Counted from the stretch's first letter, positions 1-62,434 are shown. The stretch is DNA of 64,000 bases from an uncultured Holophagae bacterium (GCA_963797055.1 CAWCOD010000016.1:27736-91735); one strand, 5' to 3'. The notes: a model not told the origin generated them from the sequence alone. Made by a program: numbers and translations.

Positions 1-2
1 CC

Positions 3-92
3 AACACCCCCATCGGCCCCGCCTACCTTGGCTACGGCTGGACCGAGGGGGGCCGGAGCCGGGTCTACTTTGCCATCGGCGATCGGTTCTAG
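3..92 (+). CDS. 3' fragment of a gene truncated by the window edge; probable outer-membrane beta-barrel C-terminus
   Basis: Open frame from the edge to TAG at 90-92. Translation ...LGYGWTEGGRSRVYFAIGDRF* ends in Phe like OMP C-termini. Too short for a family call. Confidence 0.35.
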   Translation, partial: NTPIGPAYLGYGWTEGGRSRVYFAIGDRF

Positions 93-120
93 CCCACCAC
101 AACCCTCCCGGTGCTCTCGG

Positions 121-345
121 GGTCCTGAGGTCCGAGCCCCAAAACCCCATGTCGTTCCCACCGGTGCCAGGGCCGACACTTTCTACACCTTCTCCAGGAA
201 GAACTGTGTTGCCGCTCATTACTGGTTGTCAGAAGTGTCGGTCCTGGCACCACGATGGCACCGCGACGAAGCTGGGAGTCCAAAGTGTCGGCCCTGGCAC
301 CGCGGCGGCAAAGTGTCGGCCCTGGCACCGCGGCGGCACCGCGGC
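121..345. repeat. PH element, left copy (palindromic-hairpin repeat built on GTGCCAGGGCCGACACT)
   Basis: GTGCCAGGGCCGACACT at 164-180 pairs with AAGTGTCGGTCCTGGCAC at 233-250 (about 52-nt loop). Further AAGTGTCGGCCCTGGCAC copies at 283-300 and 311-328. The whole block is the reverse complement of 8688-8935. Confidence 0.85.
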
Positions 346-391
346 GGTCCGGTAGAATGTCCCGCACGGTCAACGCTAAGGAGTATGCCCC

Positions 392-2077
392 ATGAAAGCC
401 ACGGTTCTGGCCAATCGTACGCTCGGTCTGACAATCACGGCTGCGGTCGTCCTGGGAGCCCTCGTCTGGAACGTGCTCCCCGCCGGCGCGCAGACGGCAA
501 GGCGGACCTACACCGACACCCTCGAGGTTCGAGTGCTCAACATCGAAGTCGTGGTCTCTGACCGCGACGGACAACGCGTGCCCGGTTTGACCAACGAGGA
601 CTTCACCCTCTATGTGGACGACCAACCGGTTCCCATCGAGTATTTCACCGAGGTTCGGAAAGGCGCCTACGTGGAAACAGTGGACCGCTACGCCGATTCC
701 GGCGTGGTGGCCGGCAAACCGTCGGGCACCAGCTTCCTGGTCTTCATCGATGAGTTCTTTCCCATCGGGCGGGACAAAAAACAGGTTCTGACAGCGCTCA
801 AGGAACGGGTCCAGTCAGTCTCCGATTGGGCGCCGCAGGACCGGGTTGCCATCGTGTCGTGGGACGGAAAGGGCATCAATGTGCTCACCGACTGGACCAA
901 CGACCGCAACACGGTGCTCGCCGCCCTCGACCGGGCCATCGCCCGCCCCGGTCAGGGGCTGAACCGGCAGCAGGAGCGCAGTCAATACGGGGTGACCCTC
1001 GACCCCTCCAACCTCGCCGCATCGGCCGTCGGCGGTGGCGACCGCTACCGCCTGGGAACCCAGGAGCGGATCTACGCCGACATGCTGGTTGGTCAGCTCG
1101 AAGGAACAGTTGGCGCAGCGGCCGCAGCCATGCGAGGGCTGGACGTGATCCCTGGCCGCAAGACCGTGCTGTTACTCTCCGGAGGCTGGCCCATGGACGT
1201 GGGCGACTGGGTTGGGCGAAGCGCCACGCGATCGATCCAAGAGGGACAGATACCCTCAGGCGCCGATCTTTACGGCCCGCTGGCCGAGACGGCCAATCTA
1301 CTGGGTTACAGCATCTACGGCGTGGACATGCCGGGATTCATGCAGTCGGGTGGATCGGATGCCGCACTGGCGACCGGCCGCGGAGCCGCCTACGGCAGTA
1401 CCGAGTTCTTTCTCGAGGACGATCTGCACAGCTCCCTGCGTTTCCTGTCTGCCGAAACCGGCGGATTACCACTCATCAACGACCACCGGATCAGTGCTCT
1501 GGGAGAGGTCCGGAAGGACGTGGAGTCCTTCTACTGGCTCGGCTTCACCCCGAGCTGGATCCGGGATGACGTGCGCCACACCCTTCGCGTCGAGGTGAAC
1601 CGTCCGGACATCTTTGTCCGCACCCGTTCGGGCTACCTCGATTTGGCGCCCCAGACTCAGGTGGCCATGGCGGTGGAGAGTTCACTGCTTTTCGGGATGG
1701 GACGGCCGTCATCCGAACTTCAGATGAAGGTGGGGACGGTGGAGCCGGTCGGGAGGGGGCTCGTCCACGTCGACATCGAGATGTCCTTGCCAATCAGCGC
1801 CTTGACCGTCCAGCAGTCCAAATCCGGCTACGACGCCGAGGCCACGCTCTTCGTCGCCGCCCTGGACGCGGCCGGCGGGCGGAGCGAGGTTCCCGCGATC
1901 CCCCTGCTGCTGTCCAGCCCCACACCGTTCCCGCCCAAAGGCCTCGTCGCCCACACCGTGACGCTCAAACTGCGCAAGAACACCGAGCGCGTGTCAATGG
2001 CGTTGTATGACGTGTACGGCGGGAAGACCTACACCAACACCATCACAAAGGACGAGGAGCAGACGAAGGCAAAGTAA
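392..2077 (+). CDS. VWA domain-containing protein (Acidobacteria-type, TIGR03436-like)
   Basis: 561-aa ORF with AAGGAG RBS at 378-383 and an N-terminal signal/TM. The motif LEVRVLNIEVVVSDRDGQRVPGLTNEDFTLYVDDQPVPIEYF is typical of this family, followed by a VWA-like core (FLVFIDEF...). Confidence 0.75.
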   Translation: MKATVLANRTLGLTITAAVVLGALVWNVLPAGAQTARRTYTDTLEVRVLNIEVVVSDRDGQRVPGLTNEDFTLYVDDQPVPIEYFTEVRKGAYVETVDRYADSGVVAGKPSGTSFLVFIDEFFPIGRDKKQVLTALKERVQSVSDWAPQDRVAIVSWDGKGINVLTDWTNDRNTVLAALDRAIARPGQGLNRQQERSQYGVTLDPSNLAASAVGGGDRYRLGTQERIYADMLVGQLEGTVGAAAAAMRGLDVIPGRKTVLLLSGGWPMDVGDWVGRSATRSIQEGQIPSGADLYGPLAETANLLGYSIYGVDMPGFMQSGGSDAALATGRGAAYGSTEFFLEDDLHSSLRFLSAETGGLPLINDHRISALGEVRKDVESFYWLGFTPSWIRDDVRHTLRVEVNRPDIFVRTRSGYLDLAPQTQVAMAVESSLLFGMGRPSSELQMKVGTVEPVGRGLVHVDIEMSLPISALTVQQSKSGYDAEATLFVAALDAAGGRSEVPAIPLLLSSPTPFPPKGLVAHTVTLKLRKNTERVSMALYDVYGGKTYTNTITKDEEQTKAK

Positions 2078-2090
2078 GGCAGCTAGTATC

Positions 2091-2548
2091 TTGAATTCTC
2101 AGTTTTGAATTTTGAATTCTGAATTCCCCGCCCGCCATTCGAATTTCGAAATTGCAAGCAATCCGGGTGGGCGCGATGAATCAGTGAATCGAGGAACGCC
2201 CGGGGATCCCTCGAGCGGTTCGTCGACCGTCAGGGCCGCACAACGTCTTATACCGGGCAACTGCCGGGAAGCGCCATGGGGAGAATCGGCGCTTTGAACC
2301 CACGAAACCGCGCCGGACATCGTGAGAAGCCACTCGCTGCGCTCGCTCAGGATGACAGCGGCTGCGATTCGGGCGGGCGGGGGAGAATTTAAAATTGAGA
2401 CCTCCACCGGCCCACCCGTTCTCTCGGGGGGAGGGGGTGGCAATCTGCAATCTGTAATCTGCAATCTGCAATCTGTAATCTGTAATCTGCAATTCGTAAT
2501 AGAGGGTTGGGTGGGAATTCAAAATTGAGAATTCAGAATGAAGAATTC
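2091..2548. repeat. Intergenic mosaic of GB-STR modules plus a half GTCATCCTGAGC-family element
   Basis: AT-rich GAATTC-type array 2091-2127 and C-box 2126-2136. G-boxes at 2165-2172, 2371-2383, 2425-2440 and 2504-2515. Nine heptamers (TGCAATC/TGTAATC) at 2438-2500 and a GAATTC-type array at 2516-2548. CGCTCGCTCAGGATGACA lies at about 2338-2357. Confidence 0.85.
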
Positions 2549-2559
2549 ACCCGGCATCT

Positions 2560-3123
2560 TCAGTCAACAGGAACCGGCCGCATCTCCTGCCACTTCGCCA
2601 CCATGAGCTCGAGGGCGGCCTGGATCTCCTGCTCCGCGTCGTCCGGGTCCTCGGGTACGAGGCCGACCACCGTGCCGCGCCACACCACCATCCCGGTGGC
2701 CATGTCCCAGATGTCGATGATCAAGGTGCCTCGGGGATAGGTCCTGACCTTCTGGCTGTAATCTCCGGCGTCGGCTCCCCAGGCCGGGTCCCACTGCCAT
2801 TCAGGCCCATAGTCATAACCGTAGCTCGCCGCGTCGAGCCGGACCAGTCCCGTGACTCTGGTGTGGTAGGTGACCAACAATTCTGGATTCATGTCGTCCT
2901 GAACAAGACCGCTTTTCACGAGGTGGTACTCGATGGCGTTCTTGACCTGCGAGTGGAGCAGGGGGTGGTCCTCCTCGAGCGAGGTCTCCGGCGTCGGCAC
3001 CCAATCAAAGGTCGAGTAGCTGCCCGGGGCCACCGCGCGGTCGTAGTCGATGTAGACGATCTGAGCACCGACCACCGGCGTCAGCGACACCATAACGAAC
3101 AGCAATGTCAGTACCTTCACCAT
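2560..3123 (-). CDS. DUF4136-like secreted/lipoprotein (paralog 1 of 3)
   Basis: ATG at 3123 preceded by GGGAGG. Signal peptide MVKVLTLLFVMVSLTPVVGAQ. Shares YDRxxxFxxYxTFxW, HxxxKNAIEYxL and GTLxIDIWD motifs with 11637-12209 and 35705-36256. Confidence 0.75.
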   Translation of the reverse strand: MVKVLTLLFVMVSLTPVVGAQIVYIDYDRAVAPGSYSTFDWVPTPETSLEEDHPLLHSQVKNAIEYHLVKSGLVQDDMNPELLVTYHTRVTGLVRLDAASYGYDYGPEWQWDPAWGADAGDYSQKVRTYPRGTLIIDIWDMATGMVVWRGTVVGLVPEDPDDAEQEIQAALELMVAKWQEMRPVPVD

Positions 3124-3192
3124 GCAACACCTCCCTGCGGCCTGCCCTTTCGCGATCTTCCTGCAAGGGTAGCACCCCTGCGGATTGAACCT

Positions 3193-3262
3193 CTGTGGTG
3201 CGGCCGTCTCGGCTGCACTCATGGCCTTTATTTAGAGCACGGATGCAGGCCAGAGGCCCGCT
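3193..3262. repeat. TJ element (double-hairpin repeat), slightly degenerate copy
   Basis: CTGTGGTGCGGCCGTCTCGGCTGCA, about 26 nt of spacer, then TGCAGGCCAGAGGCCCGCT. Confidence 0.7.
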
Positions 3263-3356
3263 CGATAAATCCTGTTCATCCCAAGCGAGCGAAATGGCCG
3301 CGAGTCGAGGGATCCCCCGGGCTCTCCGGAGGGACGCTCAGCCCACTCACGGCTCT

Positions 3357-3415
3357 CCGGATGGGTGGGGGTCTTTGTTCTTTGTTCTTTGTTTTTCGTT
3401 CTTTGGTCTTTGATC
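3357..3415. repeat. GB-STR module (G-box + CTTTGTT/TTCTTYG array)
   Basis: GGATGGGTGGGGG followed by tctttgttctttgttctttgtttttcgttctttggtctttgatcg. Confidence 0.8.
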
Positions 3416-3418
3416 GAG

Positions 3419-4599
3419 CTACGCTCCCAACGCCCTCAACAACACACCGCCGAAACGGCTGACCACCGCGGTGAGCACAGCGGCAATGGCCACGCTGGTC
3501 ACCACCACGATCAGCACTTCGCTGGCCAAAACCGCCCGCACCCTACGGCGCGGCGCACCGATCTTGCGCATGGTCTCGATCTCGCGACGACGCAGCCGCA
3601 CCGAGAGCGCGAAGACCAGCGCCGCGGTGGCGATGGTCGCCAACCCAAGGCCCAAGCTCACAGCGAACATGGCGTTTCGGACCGAGAACATGGTTTCCAC
3701 CAGATCGTCCACAACCACCCGAGGCACCACCATCTGCACTGACTGATCGGGCTCCTGGTAACGGCCGCGCAGCACCACGCCCGACTTGCGATCCACGGGA
3801 ACGGCGAGCACCGCATCCACCGGGAAACCCTCGGGGTCGCCGTGGAAGTGGAAGGAATCGATGTTGTCGGGCGTGATCTCGGTGTAGGACAGCACCGAGG
3901 CATTAGCCACCACGTTGTCCTCGGTGCGGGACAGCACCCCGCTGGCCGCCTCCGGAGCCCTCACGTCCTGGTGGCCATGGGCCAGACCGGCGATCACCCA
4001 CGCGGTCTTGAGGTCGACAAAGACGGCTTCGTCGTCGGGGGTGCCCGTGGGAGCCAGCACCCCAACCACCGGCATCTTGAGCGGGAAGCTGCCGGCCACG
4101 TCGAAGGCGCTGGTGGGCGTCGACAACACGTGATCGCCCGCTCCCACCCGCAGGGCCCGAGCCGCGTTGTGACCCACAATGCACTCGCCGAGCATGGCGA
4201 AACGGCGTCCGGAGGCCACCTCGAGCCCTCGAAAATCGAGGTAGTCGAGGGTGGTGCCGACGATGCGGTGACCCCGGACTTCGTACCTCAAATGGAGCGG
4301 TATCGCTCCGGCGAGACCCGAATCCGCAACCATCTCGGACTCGGCGAACGTCGTTGGATCCAGCGACGGCTCACGGAAGTACAGCGCGCCTAGGGTCAGG
4401 TCCACCGCGCTGCCACGGGCTCCCGAGAAGCAGCGGTGTCTGCGTCGGCGCGGGCCGTGAGTGCCTGCGCCGCCTCCCGCACCACCACCTGCAGGGCGGC
4501 GGGAAGGAAGAGAATCAGACTGATGGAACCGATCAACACCGCGGTCTTGCCCCGGTTGAACCGCAGATACCGCCACGCCAAATACAGCACATCACTCAT
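3419..4599 (-). pseudogene. ABC transporter permease, FtsX/MacB-like, reading frame disrupted near the 5' end
   Basis: The N-terminus (4396-4599, MSDVLYLAWRYLRFNRGKTAVLIGSISLILFLP...) is in one frame. The remainder (3419 to about 4420, GARGSAVDLTLGALYF ... C-terminal FtsX TM bundle) is in another. The intermediate frame reads TPLLLG. Span is 1181 nt (mod 3 = 2). Start overlaps the ATPase stop (ATGA). Confidence 0.7.
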
Positions 4600-5382
4600 G
4601 GAGCGCTCTCGTTGTCACTCGATTCTCGAGGCTCGTTTCTGGTTTGCGAATGCGTGCCGGTTTCAGACCGCTCACGATTCAGAAGCGAGCCTCGAGAATC
4701 GAGAAGAGAGGACGGCTGACCGAAGCCTCCCACGTCAACGACCCGGTCGAAGCGGGGGAGAATCTCGTGGTCGTGGGTGACCACCACCACCGGCGCGCCT
4801 TTTTCGCGGCCGTACCGCAGTAACGCATCGATGACGTGGTCCCTGTTGTCGGGGTCCAGGTTTCCGGTGGGTTCGTCGCCGAGCACCACCGCCGGTTGCG
4901 TAACCAACGCCCGGCACAACCCCACCCGTTGCCGTTCGCCCTGGGACAGATGACCCGGAAAACGGGCCACCTTGTCACCGAGACCCATATCCGTCGCCAG
5001 AGAGATGGCCCGCTCGCGCGTCGCATCGTCCATTTCGAGCACCGGCGTGAGCCGATACGGCAGGAGGATGTTGTCGAGCACGTCGAGGTACTCGAGCAGC
5101 TCGAACTCCTGGAAGACCAGTCCGACCTTCAGGGCCCGCAGATCCTGGCGGTCCTCGGCCCCCAGCGACGCCACGTCGAGACCGGCCACCTCGATGCGAC
5201 CGGTGCGGGGTTCCAGGATCCCGGCCAGCAGGTGGATCAGGGTGGTCTTGCCGCAGCCGCTCGGGCCGGTCAGCGCCAGGCTCTCACCCGGCTCGACCCT
5301 GAGCTCGGGGACCGACCAGTTCGAAACCACCTGATGGGTAGCCGAACTCGAGCCCTTCGACCCGGATCAGATCGGCTTCCAC
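4596..5382 (-). pseudogene. ABC transporter ATP-binding protein with an apparent +1 frameshift near the 5' end
   Basis: Walker A GPSGCGKT, signature LSQGERQR and Walker B VVLGDEP lie in 4596-5330. The expected N-terminal strand VEADLIRVEGLEFGYPSGGFELVG is encoded at 5311-5382 in another frame. The junction is a CCCC run (plus-strand GGGG 5307-5310). Span is 787 nt (mod 3 = 1). Confidence 0.75.
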
Positions 5383-7529
5383 GGCACCACCACCCGATCC
5401 TCGCTCTCGAGCTCGACTCCGGAGATCTTCCAGCGATCACCTTCAGGCCGCAAAGTGAGCATCCCGTTGTATGTGTTCTGCCGATGGTGGACGTGCTGCA
5501 GGTGGCGCACCCTGGCGACGACCATCCACCGGACGTCGTAGGCGAAGTCCTGCCCGGCCACAGCCACATCGAGCGGCTCGCCGATCTCGAGCACTCGGAC
5601 ATCACGCACGGTCACCTCAGCTCCCTCCCGCGTGCCCGCCGTCAGCCTTCGTCGACTGTCGAGATAGAGATCGTCCACGAGCTCTCCGGTGACGTTCCGC
5701 TCCAGAGTGTCGTAGAGCTCGTCCTCATCGGACAGATTGAAGGCGTGGTAGGTCTCGGACAGCACATTGGTCACCACCCGGCGGGCGCTCTCGCCCTCAG
5801 GGGCCCGAGGTTCGAAGAACGGATTGCTGACGACCACCGTGCCGAAGGGTAACAGGAGGAAGGCTGCGCCGAGCAGCAGCCAGTGCGTGACCAGTCGCCT
5901 CTGCTCCACCCCCAGCTGCTTCAGGACGCGCCCCCGCCGTGGCCAGAGAAGCACCGCAGCCACGACCAGCAGCATCGACAGCACCGGGATTCGGAGCAAC
6001 CCGAGCGCCGCCTCGGTGACCACCCGGTTGTCGAACCAAAGGCGGTAGTCGGCCAACCGCCACAGCACCGCCACCCCGCCGACCGCAACGCCCAACACAC
6101 GAATCCACCCGGTCATGGGCGTGATCGGGGAAATCCGTGACACCGACAGGCTCGCGTAGAGGAGGGACGTCGCCGTCAGCACCGCGCCGACCGCAACGCC
6201 AGTGGATTTGGACACATTCTCCACGAGCTCGAGCCCGGTGGACCACCCGTGGGCCACGACCGCGACCGGTACCACGACGAGCACCCACCGGGACGGGAGA
6301 GGCCGGCCAACGGCCAACGCCGCACCGAGCAGAAGCAATGTGCCGATCACGATCACTCCACCCAGGGGGATCGGGTTTCCAAAAAGACCCGGCACCAGTC
6401 CCGACAATGCCAGCATGCCGAATCCGGCCACGACCCATCGCCCGGCCTTGCCGGCCAAAAACAGGGTCGGCCCCAACACCAACGCCAAGAGCGCCAGCTC
6501 CACCGGCGACCTCTGCAGTCCGCCCATCAGCTGGCCAAGAGAAACAAACCGGGCCAGCACCATCCCGGTTGCCAGTCCACCGATCACGTATCCCATCGCC
6601 GTATCGGCCCGCGGCAGCCACCTGCCACCGGCCGCGAGGGTCAACACCGTCCGCAACTCCATCGCCACCAGCGAAATGACGACCAGACCGACGCCCACTC
6701 CCACACCGAAGGACACCAGCGCCACAAGCTGCTCGGCACTGGAGAGGCCGTCCGGCGGCAGAGCTTCGGGCCTTGCCCCTCCGTAGAGCAGGCCCAGGAG
6801 CAACGTGGCGGGCCACAGTGGCTGGAGCCAGCCACGCCAGCGCTCACCTCCCCCGGCCAGGGCCACCGCCGGGACCGCGGCGGAGATCAGAGTGAAGCTG
6901 TCGCGTACCAATGGATGCACCAGCAACCATCCGTTGCCGCCAAGCCACTGTGCCACCCCATGGGCCACGGCGAAGACAGCGGCACCGGTGAAAATATTCC
7001 GCCAACGGGCGCCACCGGCTACGACGACGAGGAGAAGCAACCAAAGCGGGAACTGGCGCAGGGTTCGGCGCATGGCCTCGACCGCTGCGTGTCCTCCCAA
7101 GGACGGCAGCGACGGCGGCAGCGGCACCAGAAAGCCGGGCCGCGATGGGCGCAAAATTCCCGTATATTCGCGCCCATCGAGGGTGGTGAGGGTGAAGGCC
7201 AGGTCAGTCTGAGTTCCCAGAAGACCCTCGATCAACACCGCCTCACCGGCCAACGACGGCGGGTCGCAAACGACCGTCCAGGCGGTGGTGTGGCCTACCG
7301 ACGAAACGCTGATGTCACGCTCGGTGATGTCGCTGCAAGTGGGTGGCAGCAGCGGCTCGGCGCGCAACTTGCGCCCCTCGACGATAGGAAGGGTGAAGAT
7401 CACCTCGTAGGTTCCCGGCTCGGTCTCCTCGAGGGTGAGTCGGGCCGGGAACGCAACGTCCGCGTTCACGGTTCCCGCGGCGGCCCAAAGCACCACCAAC
7501 GCCAGGATGACAGGCTTGAGCCTGGTCAT
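5367..7529 (-). CDS. Large polytopic membrane protein; N-terminal region HupE/UreJ-like (family-2 type), C-terminal soluble domain
   Basis: 720-aa ORF with a signal peptide. ARLTLEETEPGTYEVIFTLP...PPTC resembles the HupE_UreJ_2 N-terminal signature (from memory only). More than 10 predicted TM helices and a hydrophilic ~150-aa C-terminus. Overlaps the PPIase stop by 4 nt. Confidence 0.45.
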   Translation of the reverse strand: MTRLKPVILALVVLWAAAGTVNADVAFPARLTLEETEPGTYEVIFTLPIVEGRKLRAEPLLPPTCSDITERDISVSSVGHTTAWTVVCDPPSLAGEAVLIEGLLGTQTDLAFTLTTLDGREYTGILRPSRPGFLVPLPPSLPSLGGHAAVEAMRRTLRQFPLWLLLLVVVAGGARWRNIFTGAAVFAVAHGVAQWLGGNGWLLVHPLVRDSFTLISAAVPAVALAGGGERWRGWLQPLWPATLLLGLLYGGARPEALPPDGLSSAEQLVALVSFGVGVGVGLVVISLVAMELRTVLTLAAGGRWLPRADTAMGYVIGGLATGMVLARFVSLGQLMGGLQRSPVELALLALVLGPTLFLAGKAGRWVVAGFGMLALSGLVPGLFGNPIPLGGVIVIGTLLLLGAALAVGRPLPSRWVLVVVPVAVVAHGWSTGLELVENVSKSTGVAVGAVLTATSLLYASLSVSRISPITPMTGWIRVLGVAVGGVAVLWRLADYRLWFDNRVVTEAALGLLRIPVLSMLLVVAAVLLWPRRGRVLKQLGVEQRRLVTHWLLLGAAFLLLPFGTVVVSNPFFEPRAPEGESARRVVTNVLSETYHAFNLSDEDELYDTLERNVTGELVDDLYLDSRRRLTAGTREGAEVTVRDVRVLEIGEPLDVAVAGQDFAYDVRWMVVARVRHLQHVHHRQNTYNGMLTLRPEGDRWKISGVELESEDRVVVPWKPI

Positions 7530-8398
7530 TCGGCGGCCGCCTCCAGCACCTCTCTCACCGGCCGATCGAGCATGATCTGGTAGGTCTGTGCGATTTCCTG
7601 ATAAAGCTGTTCCTTGGACGCAGATCGGGCCTCATATTCCATGTCCCCGATGACCCGGGCGCCAACCTCCCGCGGGTCGGGGATCCGGGAGTCCTGCCGT
7701 TTGATCACCTTGACCAGGTGCAGACCAAAGCCGGAGACCACGGGCCCTTCCCACTCGCCAAGCTCCTGGGCCACCACGGAGACCGCGAAGTCCTCACCAA
7801 AGGTCGAGCGGATTTCCGGCTCGGTCTGTCCCGAGACCACCATCGGCAACATGATGGAATCACCCCACGAGCCGAGATCCTCCAAATCCGGATCCTCGAG
7901 ACGGAGCCGCGTCAACATCTCCACGGCATCCTGCGATGCGGATGTTCCCCGCTTATCGGGGCTGACATAGACCTGAGCAAAACTGACCACTGCGGGCAGC
8001 CGATACCGCTCCTGCCGCAGCGCGAAGTAGGCCTCCACCTCCTCATCGGTGGGTGGTTCTCTCATGGCCTGGGACGACGCCAGAAACTCCATCTTCTGCT
8101 GCATGGCCCGTCGCACCACCAGATCGTCGCGATCGTAGCCGCGGGCCAGGGCCTCCCGGTAGAGCACCTCCTGGCGGATGAACTTCTCCAGCTCGCCGCG
8201 GAGCTCCACCGCCGTCGGCTCACGCTGCCATGTTCGATAGAACCCGGCCTGCAGCTGCATCAGATCGGCACCGGTCACCACCACGCGCTGCGCCTCGTTG
8301 CCGGTGGGCGGACCCTTGGCGATGAGGATCGCCGCCGCCACGATGAAGCCGAGGATCACGATGTGGGTCGCCGGATGGCGCAAAATGGGTGAATTCAC
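7526..8398 (-). CDS. Peptidyl-prolyl cis-trans isomerase, parvulin/PpiC-type, N-terminally membrane-anchored
   Basis: GTG at 8398 lies 9 nt after GGAGGG. TM segment HIVILGFIVAAAILIA. SurA-N-like helical region, then GEWEGPVVSGFGLHLVKV typical of the parvulin fold. Confidence 0.7.
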   Translation of the reverse strand: MNSPILRHPATHIVILGFIVAAAILIAKGPPTGNEAQRVVVTGADLMQLQAGFYRTWQREPTAVELRGELEKFIRQEVLYREALARGYDRDDLVVRRAMQQKMEFLASSQAMREPPTDEEVEAYFALRQERYRLPAVVSFAQVYVSPDKRGTSASQDAVEMLTRLRLEDPDLEDLGSWGDSIMLPMVVSGQTEPEIRSTFGEDFAVSVVAQELGEWEGPVVSGFGLHLVKVIKRQDSRIPDPREVGARVIGDMEYEARSASKEQLYQEIAQTYQIMLDRPVREVLEAAAE

Positions 8399-8687
8399 GG
8401 TCCACAACCCTCCTGAAAAAAAGATGATAGCCGGGCTTCGCCGTTGCGACACCCTAATGAGACTGCCCATGCTCCTTGGGTGATCGGTTACAACCCACAA
8501 ACACACGACCTACAACCCAGGTCCGGTTGAATGAGAAATGCGAAATGTGCGGCCGCGGTCGGATGCTGCCTGCTGCCTGATGCCTGGCAGGCCAGGTGGG
8601 TAGGCAACGCGGAAATTCGACTTCTGAACCCCCCTTCATTGGGTACAGACGCGGAAGGTGGCGTCCACACTCTCCACTCGTCCCATC

Positions 8688-8935
8688 GCGGTGCCAGGGC
8701 CATCGCGGTGCCAGGGCCGACACTATTGACTCCCAGCTTCGTCGCGGTGCCATCGTGGTGCCAGGGCCGACACTTCTGACAAGCAGTATTGAGCGACAAC
8801 ACAATTATCCCTGGAGAAGGCGAAGAAAGTGTCGGCCCTGGCACCGGGGGTCATATCTCCCCTTAGAAGGTGTCAGAGGTGTCGGTCCTGGCACCGATGG
8901 GAACGATGGAGTTTTAGGGCTCGGACCTCAGGACC
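8688..8935. repeat. PH element, right copy (inverted relative to 121-345)
   Basis: GTGCCAGGGCCGACACT at 8708-8724 and 8758-8775. Reverse copies at 8827-8844 and 8877-8894. The reverse complement aligns with 121-345 at roughly 85-90% by eye, with one extra hairpin unit. Confidence 0.85.
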
Positions 8936-8976
8936 ACCAAGCGGGTGGCGGATCTAGAATCTCGTATCTCGACGGA

Positions 8977-9840
8977 TCAGAACCGCGCCCGCACGAACAG
9001 GCTGAAATCGTTGATGTCGTAGCTGATGGCAGCGTTCAGCAACGTCCCGTTCTCCTCGGTTTCGATTCCGTCCCAATCGACATCGATGGTCGACAGATTA
9101 AAGGCACCACCAACCGAGAAATGATCCCCGATGAGGTACTCGATGCCCAGACGGCCGACCCACTGACCGCCCGAGATGTCCTCGATACTGACGTACAACC
9201 AGCCGAGCCCGGCTTGGAACCGCCAGTGTTCGGAAAACATCCGCCGGTACTCGAAGTAGAGGTAGGGCAGCGGACCGGTGCCCTTCACGTCGCTGGTGCC
9301 CTCGCCCTGCTCTTCGCCGCCCTCCAAACTCCAGTCCAGCGTTGCCGAAAGTTCCAAGACGCGCAGACCGAGCCCGAAGCCGGCCGCCCACCGCTCCTTG
9401 ACCCATGGGAAGTAGGTGTAATCGATGTAGAACTGGGTCACGTCGAAACCGAGATTGACCTCGGCGTCGATGGGGATCACCTCATCGCCCCACTTGATCT
9501 CCTCAAGGCTCTGCGAGGTGGAGTCACGGCTGATGTCCTGCCAGCGCACGCCCAACCTGTGCTTGCGGGCGATCTGCCACTCGAAGGCCAACGACGGAAC
9601 GGTCTTCGACGCATCGAGGTCCAGGTCGTCCTCGAAATTGAGGGTCGTTCCCCTGCCGAGCACCTCGGAGTCGAGTCGGATCTCGGTCGACATACCAACC
9701 CAGCTGGCCTCAACCCTGAAGTTGAACTTGTCGAGCAGCGGTTCATAATCGCGCTGCGCTTCGGCGGGCGTTGCACAGACGATCGTCACAATGATGAGCA
9801 ACGCCAAACCCAAGAATCGAGATGGCACACTGTTTGTCAT
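8977..9840 (-). CDS. Outer-membrane beta-barrel protein (family unassigned)
   Basis: ATG at 9840 after GGAAGGGG. Signal peptide ...IVCATPAEAQ, alternating beta pattern, C-terminal ...SLFVRARF. Confidence 0.6.
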   Translation of the reverse strand: MTNSVPSRFLGLALLIIVTIVCATPAEAQRDYEPLLDKFNFRVEASWVGMSTEIRLDSEVLGRGTTLNFEDDLDLDASKTVPSLAFEWQIARKHRLGVRWQDISRDSTSQSLEEIKWGDEVIPIDAEVNLGFDVTQFYIDYTYFPWVKERWAAGFGLGLRVLELSATLDWSLEGGEEQGEGTSDVKGTGPLPYLYFEYRRMFSEHWRFQAGLGWLYVSIEDISGGQWVGRLGIEYLIGDHFSVGGAFNLSTIDVDWDGIETEENGTLLNAAISYDINDFSLFVRARF

Positions 9841-10192
9841 CGTTGACCCCTTCCAGTCACTGTGATCTCGTGCACGATCATACCGCGTTCGTCGGCCCAT
9901 GTGGGACTCTCGTCGGTTGCGGAAGGAAACGGCTTTGAAGATGATGGGAGAGCGGGCGCCTTCGCCGATCTCGAAGGCCCCACGCCGCCGGAAAGGGACT
10001 GGCGGTGCGGGTCCCCCCGAAGCTCAGCCTGTACTCTCCACCGAGTTTCGTCGCGAGGGAGGTAAAGCACAAGTATCCGTTGGGTTTATCGTAAATTGGG
10101 CGACACAGGCCATGGACAATGGGTCCATTGATTCCACGCTCCCAATTTCACCACGCCACTCTAGCCCAACCGGTCCACCGATCTTCGACTGA

Positions 10193-11014
10193 TCAGAACG
10201 GGAAGTTGAAACTGAGCCGATATCCGCTTTGGCGATCGCCGAACCGGTAGCCGAGGGCAATCCACGGCATCTTGATTTTCCACAGCTTGACGATTGGGTC
10301 GGTGGCGAAACTCAACCCGACCTCGTAGTTCCATTCGATATTTATGGGCCCCTCGGTGATCAACTCGAACTCCAGGTTCGAGTAGTGACGGGCGACGGCG
10401 TACATGCCGCCGTGAGCCTCCTTCGATCCCACTGAAAAGCCAAGCGGCAGCTGCGCGTCGGCGCCGATCTCCACTGTTGAGTACCAGTTCTTGACCGCCA
10501 CCGACGTGGTGTTGTTGCGGTACCTAAGGGCGCCGCCGACCATGATGTTGAAGGGTCCGGGCTGGTACTCGGCCCTGGCGCGAATCCCCGCCGCGTACAG
10601 TAACTCAACCCCGCCTGTGGCAGTGTCGTCGGCGACACCCAATTCGACGAACGGTTTGAGGACCCACCGGTCTCCCACCGGTACCAGAAACTCCGCGCCC
10701 GGGATGAATGCAATGGACTGAAAGCTGTCGAAGAAATCGCCCACATTGGTGGCGGTCTCCAACTGAAAGGTGCCGAGCGAGATCGGAAAATACAGACGGA
10801 GACCCCACGGCTTGTCCTTGAGCTTGCGCGGCCGATACGAGATCGAAATGCGGTAGATTTGGAAGGACTTGGCCTCGGCGTCTTCTATGGTGCCGGATTG
10901 CCTCGGCAGCATCGCAAGTGGGATGTCTTCGTCGAAAGCCCTTGCCGGTGCCACAGCTCCCAGCACGAGTGCCAGGACACCAAATATCAGGACTGCTCTT
11001 CGAACCGAATCCAT
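10193..11014 (-). CDS. Outer-membrane beta-barrel protein (family unassigned)
   Basis: ATG at 11014. Signal peptide MDSVRRAVLIFGVLALVLGAVAPARA. C-terminal ...YRLSFNFPF. Confidence 0.6.
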   Translation of the reverse strand: MDSVRRAVLIFGVLALVLGAVAPARAFDEDIPLAMLPRQSGTIEDAEAKSFQIYRISISYRPRKLKDKPWGLRLYFPISLGTFQLETATNVGDFFDSFQSIAFIPGAEFLVPVGDRWVLKPFVELGVADDTATGGVELLYAAGIRARAEYQPGPFNIMVGGALRYRNNTTSVAVKNWYSTVEIGADAQLPLGFSVGSKEAHGGMYAVARHYSNLEFELITEGPINIEWNYEVGLSFATDPIVKLWKIKMPWIALGYRFGDRQSGYRLSFNFPF

Positions 11015-11091
11015 GGCCACCAGACTACAGGACCTGTTCTTGTTCTCGCTCGAGTGGTTTCGAGCGGTTGGTACCGAACACCTGACCGTAA

Positions 11092-11145
11092 GTGCCAGGG
11101 CCGACACTGGTGACAATCTTCGCGCCAAAGTGTCGGCCCTGGCAC
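11092..11145. repeat. PH element, minimal single hairpin
   Basis: GTGCCAGGGCCGACACT (11092-11108), about 19-20 nt loop, AAGTGTCGGCCCTGGCAC (11128-11145). Perfect 17-bp stem. Confidence 0.85.
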
Positions 11146-11150
11146 CCTGA

Positions 11151-11302
11151 GAACGTTAAACGTTAAACGTTGAACGTTCCCTCCCCCCAACCGGGGCGAG
11201 GTGGGCGCGTATGGCGGGCGTACCGTCCAACGGAGTCGATAGTCCAAAGTCGATAGTCAAAGTGAAAGTCGATAGTTGAAAGTTGAAAGTTCCCACCCTA
11301 CC
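11151..11302. repeat. GB-STR modules (AACGTTR array; GTCGATAGT/GAAAGTT array)
   Basis: gaacgttaaacgttaaacgttgaacgtt followed by C-box CCCTCCCCCC. gtcgatagtccaaagtcgatagtcaaagtgaaagtcgatagttgaaagttgaaagtt followed by C-box CCCACCCTACC. Confidence 0.8.
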
Positions 11303-11580
11303 TCCTGGAGTGCAAGGGCGCGATGATTGGGCGTGCCGGGCAACCTGCCGGCGGCAGCGGTAGTGGCCGTGGCCGGGTGCGGCGGCCGTTTCCGATCCTG
11401 CGAGTGGGATCAGCGGCCATACGGCCACCCGCTGGTGACGGCTGGTCACCGCGGCCACCGGCCGCGAGTAACCGCGGGGAGCGCGATGGGGAGAGGGGAG
11501 GGGAGAGCGTTAACGAGGCTCGGGATCGGGCTCGAGGCTCGAGGCGGCGATCGCGGTCTCCGGCGATCTCGATGCTCGTC

Positions 11581-11636
11581 ATCTTGCATCTTGGATCTTG
11601 GATCTTGGATCTCGTATCCGGGCGTGTGGGCGGGCG
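11581..11636. repeat. GB-STR module (CTTGSAT array + G-box) abutting a stop codon
   Basis: atcttgcatcttggatcttggatcttggatctcgtatc followed by CGGGCGTGTGGGCGGGCG. Ends at the TAG of 11637-12209. Confidence 0.8.
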
Positions 11637-12209
11637 CTACTTTCCCTTGGCCTGCTGAGCCCTCTGCTTCTGGAACTGTTTGACCATCTTCTTGAGCGCC
11701 TTGTCGATCTGTTTGTCCGCCTTCTGCGGATCCTCGGGTACCGTCGCGCTGGTCGATCCACGCCAGACGATCTCGTTGGTCTCGGCGTCCCAAATATCGA
11801 TCACCAGGGTGCCGCGTTCATAGGTCGTGGCAGTGGTCACCGAATTTCCCATGGTGCCGCCCCAATAGGGATCCCAGCCCCAGCCGGGACCGTAGCTGTA
11901 TCCGTAGGTGGTGGTGCTGAACCTGACATCCTCGTAGGTGCCGACGTGATAGGTCACGTAGAGATCCGGATCCGTCGGATCCTCGACACCACCTCCCTTG
12001 GCCAGGTAGTACTCGATGGCGTTCTTGATGCGCGAGTGCATGAACGGCGACGCACCCTCGATTGAGGTCTCCGGGGTCGGTCCCCAGGCAAAGGTCTTGT
12101 ACGAGTCGAAGTCGGCGTTGCGGTCATAGTCCACGTGGACCGACTGTGCCGCCGCCGGCAGGGCGGTCAGGGCCAGGATGATTGCCATTCCAAAAAATCT
12201 CTTCACCAT
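11637..12209 (-). CDS. DUF4136-like secreted/lipoprotein (paralog 2 of 3)
   Basis: 190 aa with GGAGG RBS. Signal peptide MVKRFFGMAIILALTALPAAAQ. Same motif set as paralogs 1 and 3. Confidence 0.75.
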   Translation of the reverse strand: MVKRFFGMAIILALTALPAAAQSVHVDYDRNADFDSYKTFAWGPTPETSIEGASPFMHSRIKNAIEYYLAKGGGVEDPTDPDLYVTYHVGTYEDVRFSTTTYGYSYGPGWGWDPYWGGTMGNSVTTATTYERGTLVIDIWDAETNEIVWRGSTSATVPEDPQKADKQIDKALKKMVKQFQKQRAQQAKGK

Positions 12210-20247: not shown

Positions 20248-20346
20248 GATGCTGGATGCTGGATGCTGGATCTTGCTGGATGCTGGATGCTGGATGCTGG
20301 ATGCTGGATGCTGGATGCTGGATGCTGGATGCTGGATGCTGGATGC
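20248..20346. repeat. Heptanucleotide microsatellite (GATGCTG) x13 with one 10-nt variant unit
   Basis: Perfect GATGCTG units at 20248-20268 and 20279-20341, interrupted by gatcttgctg at 20269-20278. Confidence 0.9.
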
Positions 20347-20384: not shown

Positions 20385-20722
20385 CGGGTGGGGGACCTTA
20401 AATCTGGTACCCGGCTGGGTTGGGGCTGCTCCCTGTCCCCTGCTCCCTGCTCCCTGCTCCCTGTTCCTTGTTCCTTGTTCCTTGCTCCCTGCTCCCTGCT
20501 CCGTGCTCCTGGTAGGGCGGGCGGCGGTTCTTCGATCTTCGTTCTTTTTTTTCGACCGGCAACGGCAACGGTAACGGGCTCGGGCTCGGGCTCGGGCTCG
20601 GGGGAAGGCAGCGGATCTGGTATCCGGCATCCGGGTGGGCGGGGGATCCGGCTCCGCCTGCGGCTACGCCGTGACACGTCTCGCATCTTGCATCTTGAAT
20701 CTTGAATCGGGCGGGCGGGGGG
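20385..20722. repeat. Contiguous mosaic of GB-STR modules
   Basis: G-boxes at 20385-20395, 20413-20425, 20511-20527, 20631-20645 and 20709-20722. CTGCTCC/TTGTTCC array 20426-20509. TTCTTCGATCTTCG array 20528-20554. (GGCAAC)(GGGCTC)n 20555-20604. GCATCTTG/GAATCTTG array 20683-20708. Confidence 0.9.
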
Positions 20723-40974: not shown

Positions 40975-41144
40975 CCGGGCGGGCGGGGGATCCGGCTCCG
41001 CCTGCGGCTCCGCCGTGACAAGTCTTGGATCTTGGATCTTGCATCTTGAATCGGGGTGGGCGAAGGTTCGTTCCTGCTCCCTGCTCCCTGCTCCTTGCTC
41101 CCTGCTCCTTGCTCCTTGTTCCTTGTTCCTGGGCGGGTGGGCGG
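40975..41144. repeat. GB-STR mosaic; its left part duplicates 20631-20722
   Basis: CCGGGCGGGCGGGGG-ATCCGGCTCCGCCTGCGGCTCCGCCGTGACAAGTCT-(CTTGGAT/CTTGCAT/CTTGAAT)-GGGGTGGGCG. Then a CTGCTCC/TTGTTCC array 41066-41129 and G-box 41130-41144. Confidence 0.9.
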
Positions 41145-55715: not shown

Positions 55716-55837
55716 AAGTCGGTGCCAGGCACCGCCGCAGATGTGTCGACCTCGTACTACGACTCGATTTCGACGGTGCCTGGCACCGGGTGAGCGCGTT
55801 CGCGGCGCGCGTGAGGACGGCACGCCCGCTCACGGCG

Positions 55838-59370: not shown

Positions 59371-59455
59371 GTCGGGCGGGGGAATATGCAATCTGCAATC
59401 TGCAATCTGCAATCTGTAATCTGTAATCTGTAATTCGTAATTCAATCGCAATTCG
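59371..59455. repeat. GB-STR module: G-box + (TGCAATC/TGTAATC) heptamer array
   Basis: GTCGGGCGGGGG followed by aatatgcaatctgcaatctgcaatctgcaatctgtaatctgtaatctgtaattcgtaattcaatcgcaattcg. Same unit as 2438-2500. Confidence 0.9.
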
Positions 59456-62290: not shown

Positions 62291-62434
62291 GGGCGGGCGG
62301 CGGGCAATTCAAAATTGAGAATTCAAAACTCAAAATTCACGACCTTGCTCCTTGCTCCCTGTTCCTTCCCTCCGTCCGGCGGGTCGGGCATCTTGCATCT
62401 TGCATCTTGCATCTCGCATCTGGCCGGGCGGCGG
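62291..62434. repeat. GB-STR mosaic abutting the KASIII-like stop codon
   Basis: GGGCGGGCGGCGGG followed by caattcaaaattgagaattcaaaactcaaaattcac. ccttgctccttgctccctgttccttccctcc. GGCGGGTCGGG followed by catcttgcatcttgcatcttgcatctcgcatctgg, then CCGGGCGGCGG. Confidence 0.85.

Follow-up and report, generated by a model that had tools for sequence, protein, structure and literature searches.

Inverted Hairpin Clusters Around an 8.3-kb Gene Block in an Uncultured Holophagae Bacterium as Probable Transposase-Less Repeats of a RAYT (TIRYT) Family

Introduction

Why should an 8.3-kb block of genes be bracketed by two copies of the same hairpin-rich sequence, one inverted with respect to the other? 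The question is raised by a 64,000-nt stretch of DNA from an uncultured Holophagae bacterium (GCA_963797055.1, CAWCOD010000016.1:27736-91735; the whole stretch is hereafter "the window"), in which two composite elements of about 240 bp, here called PH elements, occupy positions 121-345 and 8688-8935. An original prediction, made by reading this DNA, proposed that the pair is a substrate for homologous inversion of the enclosed genes, and that the hairpins could also act as bidirectional terminators or insulators. Our follow-up makes it very likely that each PH element is a cluster of a ~29-nt unit that, in related Acidobacteriota, is the terminal inverted repeat (TIR) of a gene for a REP-associated, IS200-like tyrosine transposase (RAYT; REP, repetitive extragenic palindrome) of group 1/subclass 2.1, also known as TIRYT. 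Because the same units in the same topology flank RAYT genes in related genomes, we regard the PH elements as non-autonomous, REPIN-like (TIRtron-derived) repeats. The eye-catching structure is thereby explained within RAYT-associated repeats, and the window needs no special inversion-switch hypothesis.

Anatomy of the Composite Elements

Read directly, the sequences at 121-345 and 8688-8935 are reverse complements of each other. A repeat search recovered inverted arms at 158-309 and 8699-8850 (152 nt, 91% complementary) as well as inverted termini at 121-150 and 8906-8935 (30 nt, 93%), and a gapped alignment of 100-380 with the reverse complement of 8660-8960 agreed, the indels amounting to one of 50 nt and one of 11 nt. 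The inverted pair, its hairpin arms and its direct repeats, all part of the original prediction, were thus borne out. The 17-mer GTGCCAGGGCCGACACT, allowing up to two mismatches, occurred 10 times in the 64 kb (expectation from shuffles, 0.02), with every match falling within 164-328, 8708-8894 or 11092-11145. A profile built from 171 units of the family described below found the same ten units plus a 13-nt remnant at 8689-8701, and no others.

The left element (121-345, plus strand; unit order + - - -) opens with a 5' flank at 121-163, which lies outside the outermost repeat unit, is common to the right copy (93%) and consists of an GGTCCTGA-type 8-mer repeat followed by CGTTCCCAYCG. Unit F1 comes next (164-180, plus strand, no mismatches to the 17-mer core, inner side toward the right), then a 53-nt loop and, across it, the partner R1 (234-250, minus strand, one mismatch). 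R2 (284-300) and R3 (312-328), both on the minus strand and free of mismatches, lie within an exact 28-nt tandem duplication at 281-338. The right element (8688-8935, minus strand) has the canonical + + - - order with 50/70/50 spacing, followed by a truncated R3. Along the minus strand these are F0 (8878-8894, minus, two mismatches), F1 (8828-8844, minus), the 53-nt loop, R1 (8758-8774, plus) and R2 (8708-8724, plus), located by the 17-mer search, and the 13-nt R3 remnant (GGTGCCAGGGCCA; 8689-8701, plus), located by alignment and profile search. One extra unit had been claimed for the right copy; this is correct for F0, a 50-nt F unit without counterpart in the left copy, but there is also an additional R, complete in the left copy and reduced to the remnant in the right. 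The minimal third hairpin claimed at 11092-11145 was found as a REPIN-like doublet, F and R separated by a 20-nt loop.

A CRISPR-like reading of the 50-nt periodicity was rejected: there are at most two to three units per orientation, they are nested and inverted, and they flank a transposase gene in other genomes.

A Repeat Family Dispersed in Acidobacteriota

When one genome for each GTDB species was scanned for the exact 17-mer, over 109 stretches were listed, a lower bound. Among the matches listed, about 70 came from uncultured Holophagae, Thermoanaerobaculia, Sulfomarinibacteraceae and other Acidobacteriota metagenome-assembled genomes (MAGs) and had conserved flanks; 37, again among those listed, came from other phyla and were singletons with random flanks, approximately the number that we estimate chance would produce in 596 Gb. 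At least 11 Holophagae/Thermoanaerobaculia-type MAGs contain the unit, which was absent from the viral contigs searched, and a full-text literature search turned up no published account of it from Holophagae or Thermoanaerobaculia. The 171 units used for the profile gave a consensus of ~29 nt, cGGTGCCAGGGCCGACACTTTtGACaCTTT, with the 17-mer as its core, GGTGCC at its outer end and, at its inner end, two copies of an 8-nt sub-repeat, GACACTTT.

The unit occurs in the acidobacterial loci as singlets, as "+ -" doublets with a spacing of 51-70, and as nested clusters. Among 108 clusters counted in these loci and the window, 67 were single units and 15 were "+ -" doublets, the remainder being "+ +", "- -" or larger nested arrangements; the "+ + - -" form with 50/70/50 spacing recurs at no fewer than six sites in the closest genome. 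Spacers and loops are often unrelated in sequence from site to site while keeping their lengths, and some sites share spacers and so constitute subfamilies. For gene context, assessed with a simple gene caller based on GC3 (G+C content at third codon positions), 81 of 107 clusters could be classified, and all but two of these (79/81) were extragenic in DNA that is at least 71% coding, lying between co-directional (35), convergent (26) or divergent (18) genes.

Two further motifs were seen around the units. At several clusters an 8-mer motif (GGTCCTGA/GGTCCGAG) stands just outside the outermost unit, as at window 121-150 and 8906-8935, where it is included in the segment duplicated between left and right, and at L001 ~5478, L031 ~2939, L039 ~3033 and L098 134-217 (L numbers denote fetched loci); in L039 and L098 it forms a palindrome of its own. 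Elsewhere in the window, two perfect 15-nt palindromes, CGGTGCCWGGCACCG, lie 56 nt apart at 55719-55733 and 55775-55789, in an intergenic region that also holds heptamer repeats, and resemble a head-to-head fusion between the outer ends of two units.

The Cognate Transposase

Using phmmer with an E. coli YafM (RAYT) sequence, a probe that served as a lead only, we found five open reading frames (ORFs) of about 325-330 aa in the fetched loci, and confirmed these matches by Pfam, NCBIfam and PDB. All five match both Pfam Y1_Tnp (PF01797) and NCBIfam NF047646, "REP-associated tyrosine transposase" (68-93 bits, cut-off 80), and the motifs NHYH (HUH), WQ and AY[IV]H[LV]NP, the last with the catalytic tyrosine, are invariant in the five sequences. 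Each ORF carries ~180 aa C-terminal to this core, and Bac_DnaA_C matched weakly in one paralogue only. The sole relative in PDB is E. coli TnpA-REP, 4ER8 (E 0.002, very low identity). Homologues numbered 743 at E ≤ 1e-20, many of them named "REP element-mobilizing transposase RayT" at source, and many lie on contigs of 1-2 kb, as expected if assemblies break at flanking repeats.

Four of the five ORFs (L043, L063, L104, and L018) are bounded by the unit, with F ~20-60 nt upstream, R ~10-25 nt downstream and the inner sides toward the gene. With the additional metagenome loci L190 and L191/L192, units flank ~325-aa genes at seven places in at least six genomes or metagenomes. L190, whose transposase is 72% identical, reproduces the PH architecture as F F-gene-R R, a gene replacing the loop, and in L191/L192 the order is F F-gene-R. 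The gene-containing units observed span 1.0-1.4 kb. Repeat and enzyme also change together: a 57%-identical homologue (L193/L194) has a co-varied repeat, GGTGCCAGGCCCAACGATTTAACGATTTT, on both sides, and a 42%-identical second RAYT paralogue (L094 6266-7261), the one with the weak Bac_DnaA_C match, is flanked by inverted repeats of the form GGTGCCAGGTACGGGGGTATTGATGTT. The outer nine nucleotides, GGTGCCAGG, are common to all three repeat variants, and the inner sub-repeat is altered in both of its copies.

Locus L094 offers two observations of its own. The upstream and downstream repeats of its RAYT paralogue are each tandemly duplicated. At 2913-4302 of the same MAG (CAWDGW010000017.1), moreover, an inverted pair of full units in transposase-type topology encloses a 1.37-kb segment that encodes, in place of a transposase, a secreted beta-propeller-like protein (DUF6923 match), which may be a cargo gene or may have replaced a transposase.

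These flanking arrangements bear on two other origins for the repeats. A host regulator or nucleoid protein could bind the 17-mer, its copies marking a regulon or chromosome-structuring sites; the core read from the sequence is a partial dyad, GTGyCrG..CyGrCAC, with 5 of 8 symmetric pairs, the units are conserved in situ, and their spacing is regular at 50 nt. Against this, the units flank RAYT genes systematically in the manner of transposon ends and co-vary with the transposase clade, the genes near the units are functionally unrelated, and the copies show presence/absence polymorphism between close relatives, all of which makes this explanation very unlikely. Miniature inverted-repeat transposable elements (MITEs) derived from a DDE-type insertion sequence would likewise be short, transposase-less and made of inverted repeats, but what the repeats were found to enclose is in every case a gene for a Y1 HUH transposase and not a DDE one, a flanking direct duplication was not seen in the aligned copies, and the occurrence of units singly and in tandem is atypical for MITEs. 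We give this origin next to no credence.

Comparison With Known RAYT-Associated Repeats

Di Nocera et al. (2013; PMC3733652) introduced the name TIRYT for such enzymes and TIRtron for their units, the genes being bordered by plain inverted repeats and not by REPs that are palindromes in themselves; that study reported TIR families of moderate abundance in a small number of species, together with a sharply delimited TIRYT group from Acidobacteriota. The corresponding TnpA-REP subclass 2.1 (Quentin et al., 2018; PMC6006769), equivalent to RAYT group 1 of Bertels et al. (2017; PMC5581495), has the signature NH[YF]H, W[EQ], Y[IV]HLNP, and many of its members carry a C-terminal extension resembling Bac_DnaA_C or a helix-turn-helix (HTH). 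The repeat family described here is, in structure, a TIRtron-type family that also forms REPIN-like doublets. Its unit flanks a Y1 RAYT gene in which the subclass 2.1 motifs are intact, and its dispersal is mainly extragenic. With TIRtrons and TIRYTs it shares a Y1 transposase of ~325 aa with motifs matching the published signature (PMC6006769) and an HTH-like C-terminal extension, and inverted repeats that are not self-complementary, stand at the gene and are also dispersed as singles, dimers and groups. It differs in its new repeat sequence, which lacks GGGGWSAS, in its hosts (Holophagae/Thermoanaerobaculia-type MAGs) and in the regular nested F F-loop-R R arrangement with 50/70/50 spacing. 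No REP-like sequences were found beside subclass 2.1 genes by Quentin et al. (2018; PMC6006769), and REP-like populations have been reported as generally lacking in this subclass, whereas the population here is conspicuous.

Like the REPIN-RAYT systems of Pseudomonas and Enterobacteria (Bertels & Rainey, 2011; PMC3116915), the family consists of extragenic, hairpin-forming inverted doublets that are non-autonomous, share their sequence with the flanks of a RAYT gene and persist as copies at orthologous sites in related species; the doublet at 11092-11145 and the 15 "+ -" doublets spaced by 51-70 are of this form. REPINs, however, use RAYTs of groups 2 and 3 (~150-190 aa), in place of which we find group 1/subclass 2.1, and a REP is itself an imperfect palindrome with GTAG, whereas a single unit here is unfolded and GTAG is absent. 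A classical REP was rejected accordingly: the single unit has no stem-loop, and neither GTAG nor CGTC stands at either end of cGGTGCCAGGGCCGACACTTTtGACaCTTT. Resemblance to E. coli REPs, which form bacterial interspersed mosaic elements (BIMEs) and are associated with TnpA-REP (4ER8), lies in the mosaic, intergenic clusters of oppositely oriented units downstream of genes, but BIMEs alternate head-to-head and tail-to-tail with linker motifs, and the clusters here are nested (+ + - -). IS200/IS605 elements share the HUH/Y1 chemistry, the absence of an expected target duplication and the recognition of DNA secondary structure at their ends; unlike the plain inverted repeats and abundant gene-less copies seen here, they have subterminal hairpins within each end and are autonomous and multicopy.

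A Proposed Origin and the Points Against It

Very probably the PH elements derive from TIRtron ends, the doublets (F-loop-R) and nested clusters (F F-loop-R R) being transposase-less derivatives, analogous to REPINs and to E. coli BIMEs. By the mechanism that we consider most likely, inverted units would pair into a long hairpin on single-stranded DNA, which a transposase supplied in trans would recognise and cleave; single units or entire composites would thereby be copied or moved, in many cases to a nearby site. On this reading the window contains two local paralogues, left and right, which since the split from the relative described below have changed only by unit-level deletion and duplication.

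Several observations count against this proposal. The duplicated left/right piece is ~250 nt long and includes ~43 nt outside the outermost unit, an excess that simple end-defined transposition leaves unexplained; the extension may reflect recombination-based copying. Nor does the transposase model explain the constant 50/70/50 spacing, which is maintained despite unrelated subfamily spacers. The units are not self-palindromic and lack GTAG, and the consensus unit lacks the GGGGWSAS of described TIRs, although this motif is not strictly defining, since PMC3733652 reports it for just "some" TIRs. That the repeats are mobilised is presumed from their association with RAYT genes. Finally, phmmer detected no transposase of the repeat-unit family encoded in the 64-kb window. 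The absence of a transposase had been remarked on in the original prediction, and the remark is true of the window but misleading, the unit being the terminal inverted repeat of a RAYT/TIRYT gene in related genomes.

History of the Pair and the Inversion Hypothesis

A contig of one relative, CAVQBD010000004.1 (MFD09964.bin.1.27; loci L049 and L001), is collinear with window positions 2266-11227 at 86% identity, and a tblastn search of the window proteins against 109 genome loci found the orthologous block only there. In this relative both composites occupy the corresponding positions with unchanged orientation, and a Patatin+Omp85 gene lies upstream of the left one. Computed over a 137-nt core, identity was 92.0% between left and right in the window, 89.8% between the left copy and its orthologue, 90.5% between the right copy and its orthologue, and 83.9% between left and right in the relative. 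Diagnostic sites favor orthology over within-genome grouping by 4:1, from which we conclude that the duplication predates the split from the 86% relative and that the copies have not been homogenised since.

The units evolve more slowly than the spacers (e.g., 1/51 vs. 13/86 differences, p = 0.017). What has changed since the split has done so at the level of units: the window's left copy has lost F0, and its orthologue in the relative has lost the ~43-nt 5' flank. The relative is also without window 320-2082 (1.76 kb, VWA-like gene; compared with L049 ~6560-6580). One breakpoint of this difference lies inside R3, between AGTGTCGG and TAGTATC, which suggests that the absence of the VWA gene is a deletion at the element. 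At the 11092 site the window has the doublet and the relative an F unit only (window 11119-11149 vs. L001 7668-7708): ~31 nt and ~40 nt of unrelated sequence, respectively, are set in flanks almost 100% identical, well above the 86% average.

On a second contig of the relative (CAVQBD010000002.1, 576-592 kb; L044 and L034), three composites of the same subfamily are directly oriented at distances of 5.9 and 1.4 kb, and so local paralogous pairs exist in both orientations and the family is not characterised by inverted copies that bracket genes. Over 140-190 nt these three share 85-95% identity; a fourth, partial copy lies among them, and the arrangement looks like local proliferation.

Against this history we weighed the inversion hypothesis, in which the inverted pair would be a substrate for RecA-type or programmed inversion that switches the promoter/terminator context of the VWA gene and the operon encoding a peptidyl-prolyl isomerase (PPIase), a HupE-like protein and ABC transporter components. 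The pair is a true inverted repeat, and its longest identical run, 38 bp, exceeds the minimum for recombination by E. coli RecA, which is roughly 25 bp. Left and right in the window are also slightly more alike than either is to its orthologue, and the left copy has the right-type 5' flank that is missing from its orthologue, so that some past exchange is possible. Yet that 38-bp run is embedded in ~92%-identical DNA, and ~8% divergence would be strongly anti-recombinogenic; the diagnostic sites argue against homogenisation; no invertase or recombinase gene was found in or beside the block; the same-subfamily copies elsewhere are direct at similar distances; and most of the family consists of isolated clusters. 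Comparison of synteny, which had been put forward as a check, yielded one informative relative, and its block has the same orientation as in the window. Of the marks of an invertible segment, a recombinase domain was not found in the block or its neighbors and an alternative orientation was not seen in the one relative, and the pair is a formal substrate for inversion only; we judge such a switch highly improbable.

Other searches bearing on orientation covered protein look-ups and metagenomes. Exact-protein look-ups for three window proteins turned up no alternative assembly with the other orientation on record. A metagenome scan with the FtsX-like permease returned 80 loci, in which close relatives were confined to contigs of <3.5 kb; long contigs (≤67% aa identity) kept the order PPIase-HupE-ABC-FtsX but had neither repeat units nor shared flanks, and are therefore uninformative on inversion. 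Both composites run F to R along local transcription, that is, in the direction of the upstream gene for an outer membrane protein (OMP)-type product; the inverted orientation of the pair thus follows local gene orientation and is no evidence that the 8.3-kb block has a function of its own.

Folding and a Possible Role in RNA

A lone unit does not fold (-1.6 or -2.2 kcal/mol; z +0.5 or +0.3), whereas doublets fold strongly, with z-scores of -5.5 and -6.9 as DNA and, for the minimal doublet, -4.8 as RNA. The right intergenic region as RNA reached -203.7 kcal/mol (z -4.6). The hairpins do not have the form of intrinsic terminators: none is followed by a U-tract, the sequences in that position being CACGAT.., CGCGG.. 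or TTACGG, and a promoter/terminator consensus scan gave no site at any element, its counts matching those of shuffles.

By analogy with E. coli REPs, and on that basis only, GC-rich hairpins that are transcribed would probably serve as 3' structures for RNA stability or attenuation. That the elements, possibly mobile in origin, are kept mainly for such a role at the RNA level, as 3' stabilisers, attenuators or insulators, is a tentative proposal and one we rate as rather doubtful; it would add to a transposase-related origin rather than exclude it. In its favor, the nested hairpins fold very stably; each of the three sites in the window is located between co-directional genes, with both composites aligned to transcription; the units are better conserved than the spacers at orthologous sites; the family is overrepresented close to the 3' ends of genes (26 convergent and 35 co-directional vs. 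18 divergent); and E. coli REPs have such roles (cited in PMC5581495). The missing U-tracts and the empty terminator scan argue against it, as do the 18 clusters in divergent promoter regions and the loops and spacers that vary freely among copies.

Implications

The value of the locus is modest: it gives access to a clean repeat population of a group-1/subclass-2.1 ("TIRYT") transposase in uncultured Acidobacteriota, in which the nested F F-loop-R R pattern is mirrored at the transposase gene and the repeat co-varies with the enzyme clade. We know of no biochemical data on subclass 2.1 enzymes, and the family is a candidate system for first biochemistry on this RAYT class; the contrast between the conserved outer GGTGCCAGG and the changing inner 8-nt sub-repeat leads to predictions on which part of the repeat is recognised by each domain. 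Repeats of this kind break short-read assemblies, in keeping with the many homologous transposase contigs of 1-2 kb, and they mark hot spots of deletion and rearrangement, the relative's loss of the VWA gene being one case. Three features could make the system more than a routine case: units under constraint in situ, 50/70/50 spacing that is fixed whatever the spacer, and pairs enclosing non-transposase genes (L094 2913-4302).

On that reading, to which we assign only a small chance, this would be a conspicuous, still-turning-over population tied to a group-1/subclass-2.1 RAYT that could mobilise or rearrange host genes. In the window the units closest to the block point outward, while the outermost F(164) and R(8894) have the topology of transposon ends but span 8.7 kb. 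By extension, these two might occasionally move or invert the 8.7 kb.

Gene Context and Other Features of the Window

The enclosed block (346-8687) is not part of either element. Gene calls and Pfam place in it a VWA-like gene (392-2077, plus strand, weak match) followed by genes on the minus strand for a DUF4136 protein (2560-3222), an FtsX/MacB permease (3419-4576), an ABC ATPase (4596-5330), a double HupE/UreJ-like protein (5367-7529) and a PPIase (7526-8506). Neither the block nor its neighbors encodes a transposase or recombinase domain detectable with Pfam. The gene ending at position 92, upstream of the left copy, encodes the C-terminus of a Patatin+Omp85 protein, identified via its full-length orthologue, and upstream of the right copy lies a gene for a 307-aa protein (8977-9900, minus strand) with a signal peptide and a terminal Phe, a putative beta-barrel with a weak OMP_b-brl match. 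An OMP gene had been predicted upstream of each copy, which stands for the left and, for the right, depends on this weak match. The two genes are not paralogues from a larger inverted duplication, as we had considered, the 746-aa Patatin+Omp85 protein being unrelated to the 307-aa barrel-like one.

A scan for tRNA and tmRNA gave no matches in the window, and Rfam (whole window at gathering thresholds; 1-12000 at E ≤ 1) had no family at the elements. The only Rfam match was a sub-threshold mir-1788 (4620-4701, E 0.07), presumably due to chance; it coincides with a 24-nt inverted repeat (4618-4641 and 4680-4703; 96% complementary, 38-nt gap) located at the ABC ATPase gene's 3' end. The gene order PPIase - HupE-like - ABC ATPase - FtsX permease is kept in many distant relatives without the repeat family, with protein identities of 28-67% (L118, L123, L125, L127, L128, L130, L144, L145, and other sediment-metagenome loci).

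More than 35 tandem arrays with a period of 7 are spread along the window, with many different units (GCAATCT, GAATTCA, AACGTTA, GATGCTG x13.7, CTGCTCC x12, and others). Examples lie at 2092-2126, 2440-2500, 2515-2549, 3372-3412, 11152-11178, and 11259-11291, and, farther along, at 20248-20346, 20426-20509, 41075-41130, 59383-59452, and 62388-62421. Arrays that were read or checked against the gene calls are intergenic and often beside repeat elements, and the relative shows arrays of this kind too (L001, L025, L031, and L039).

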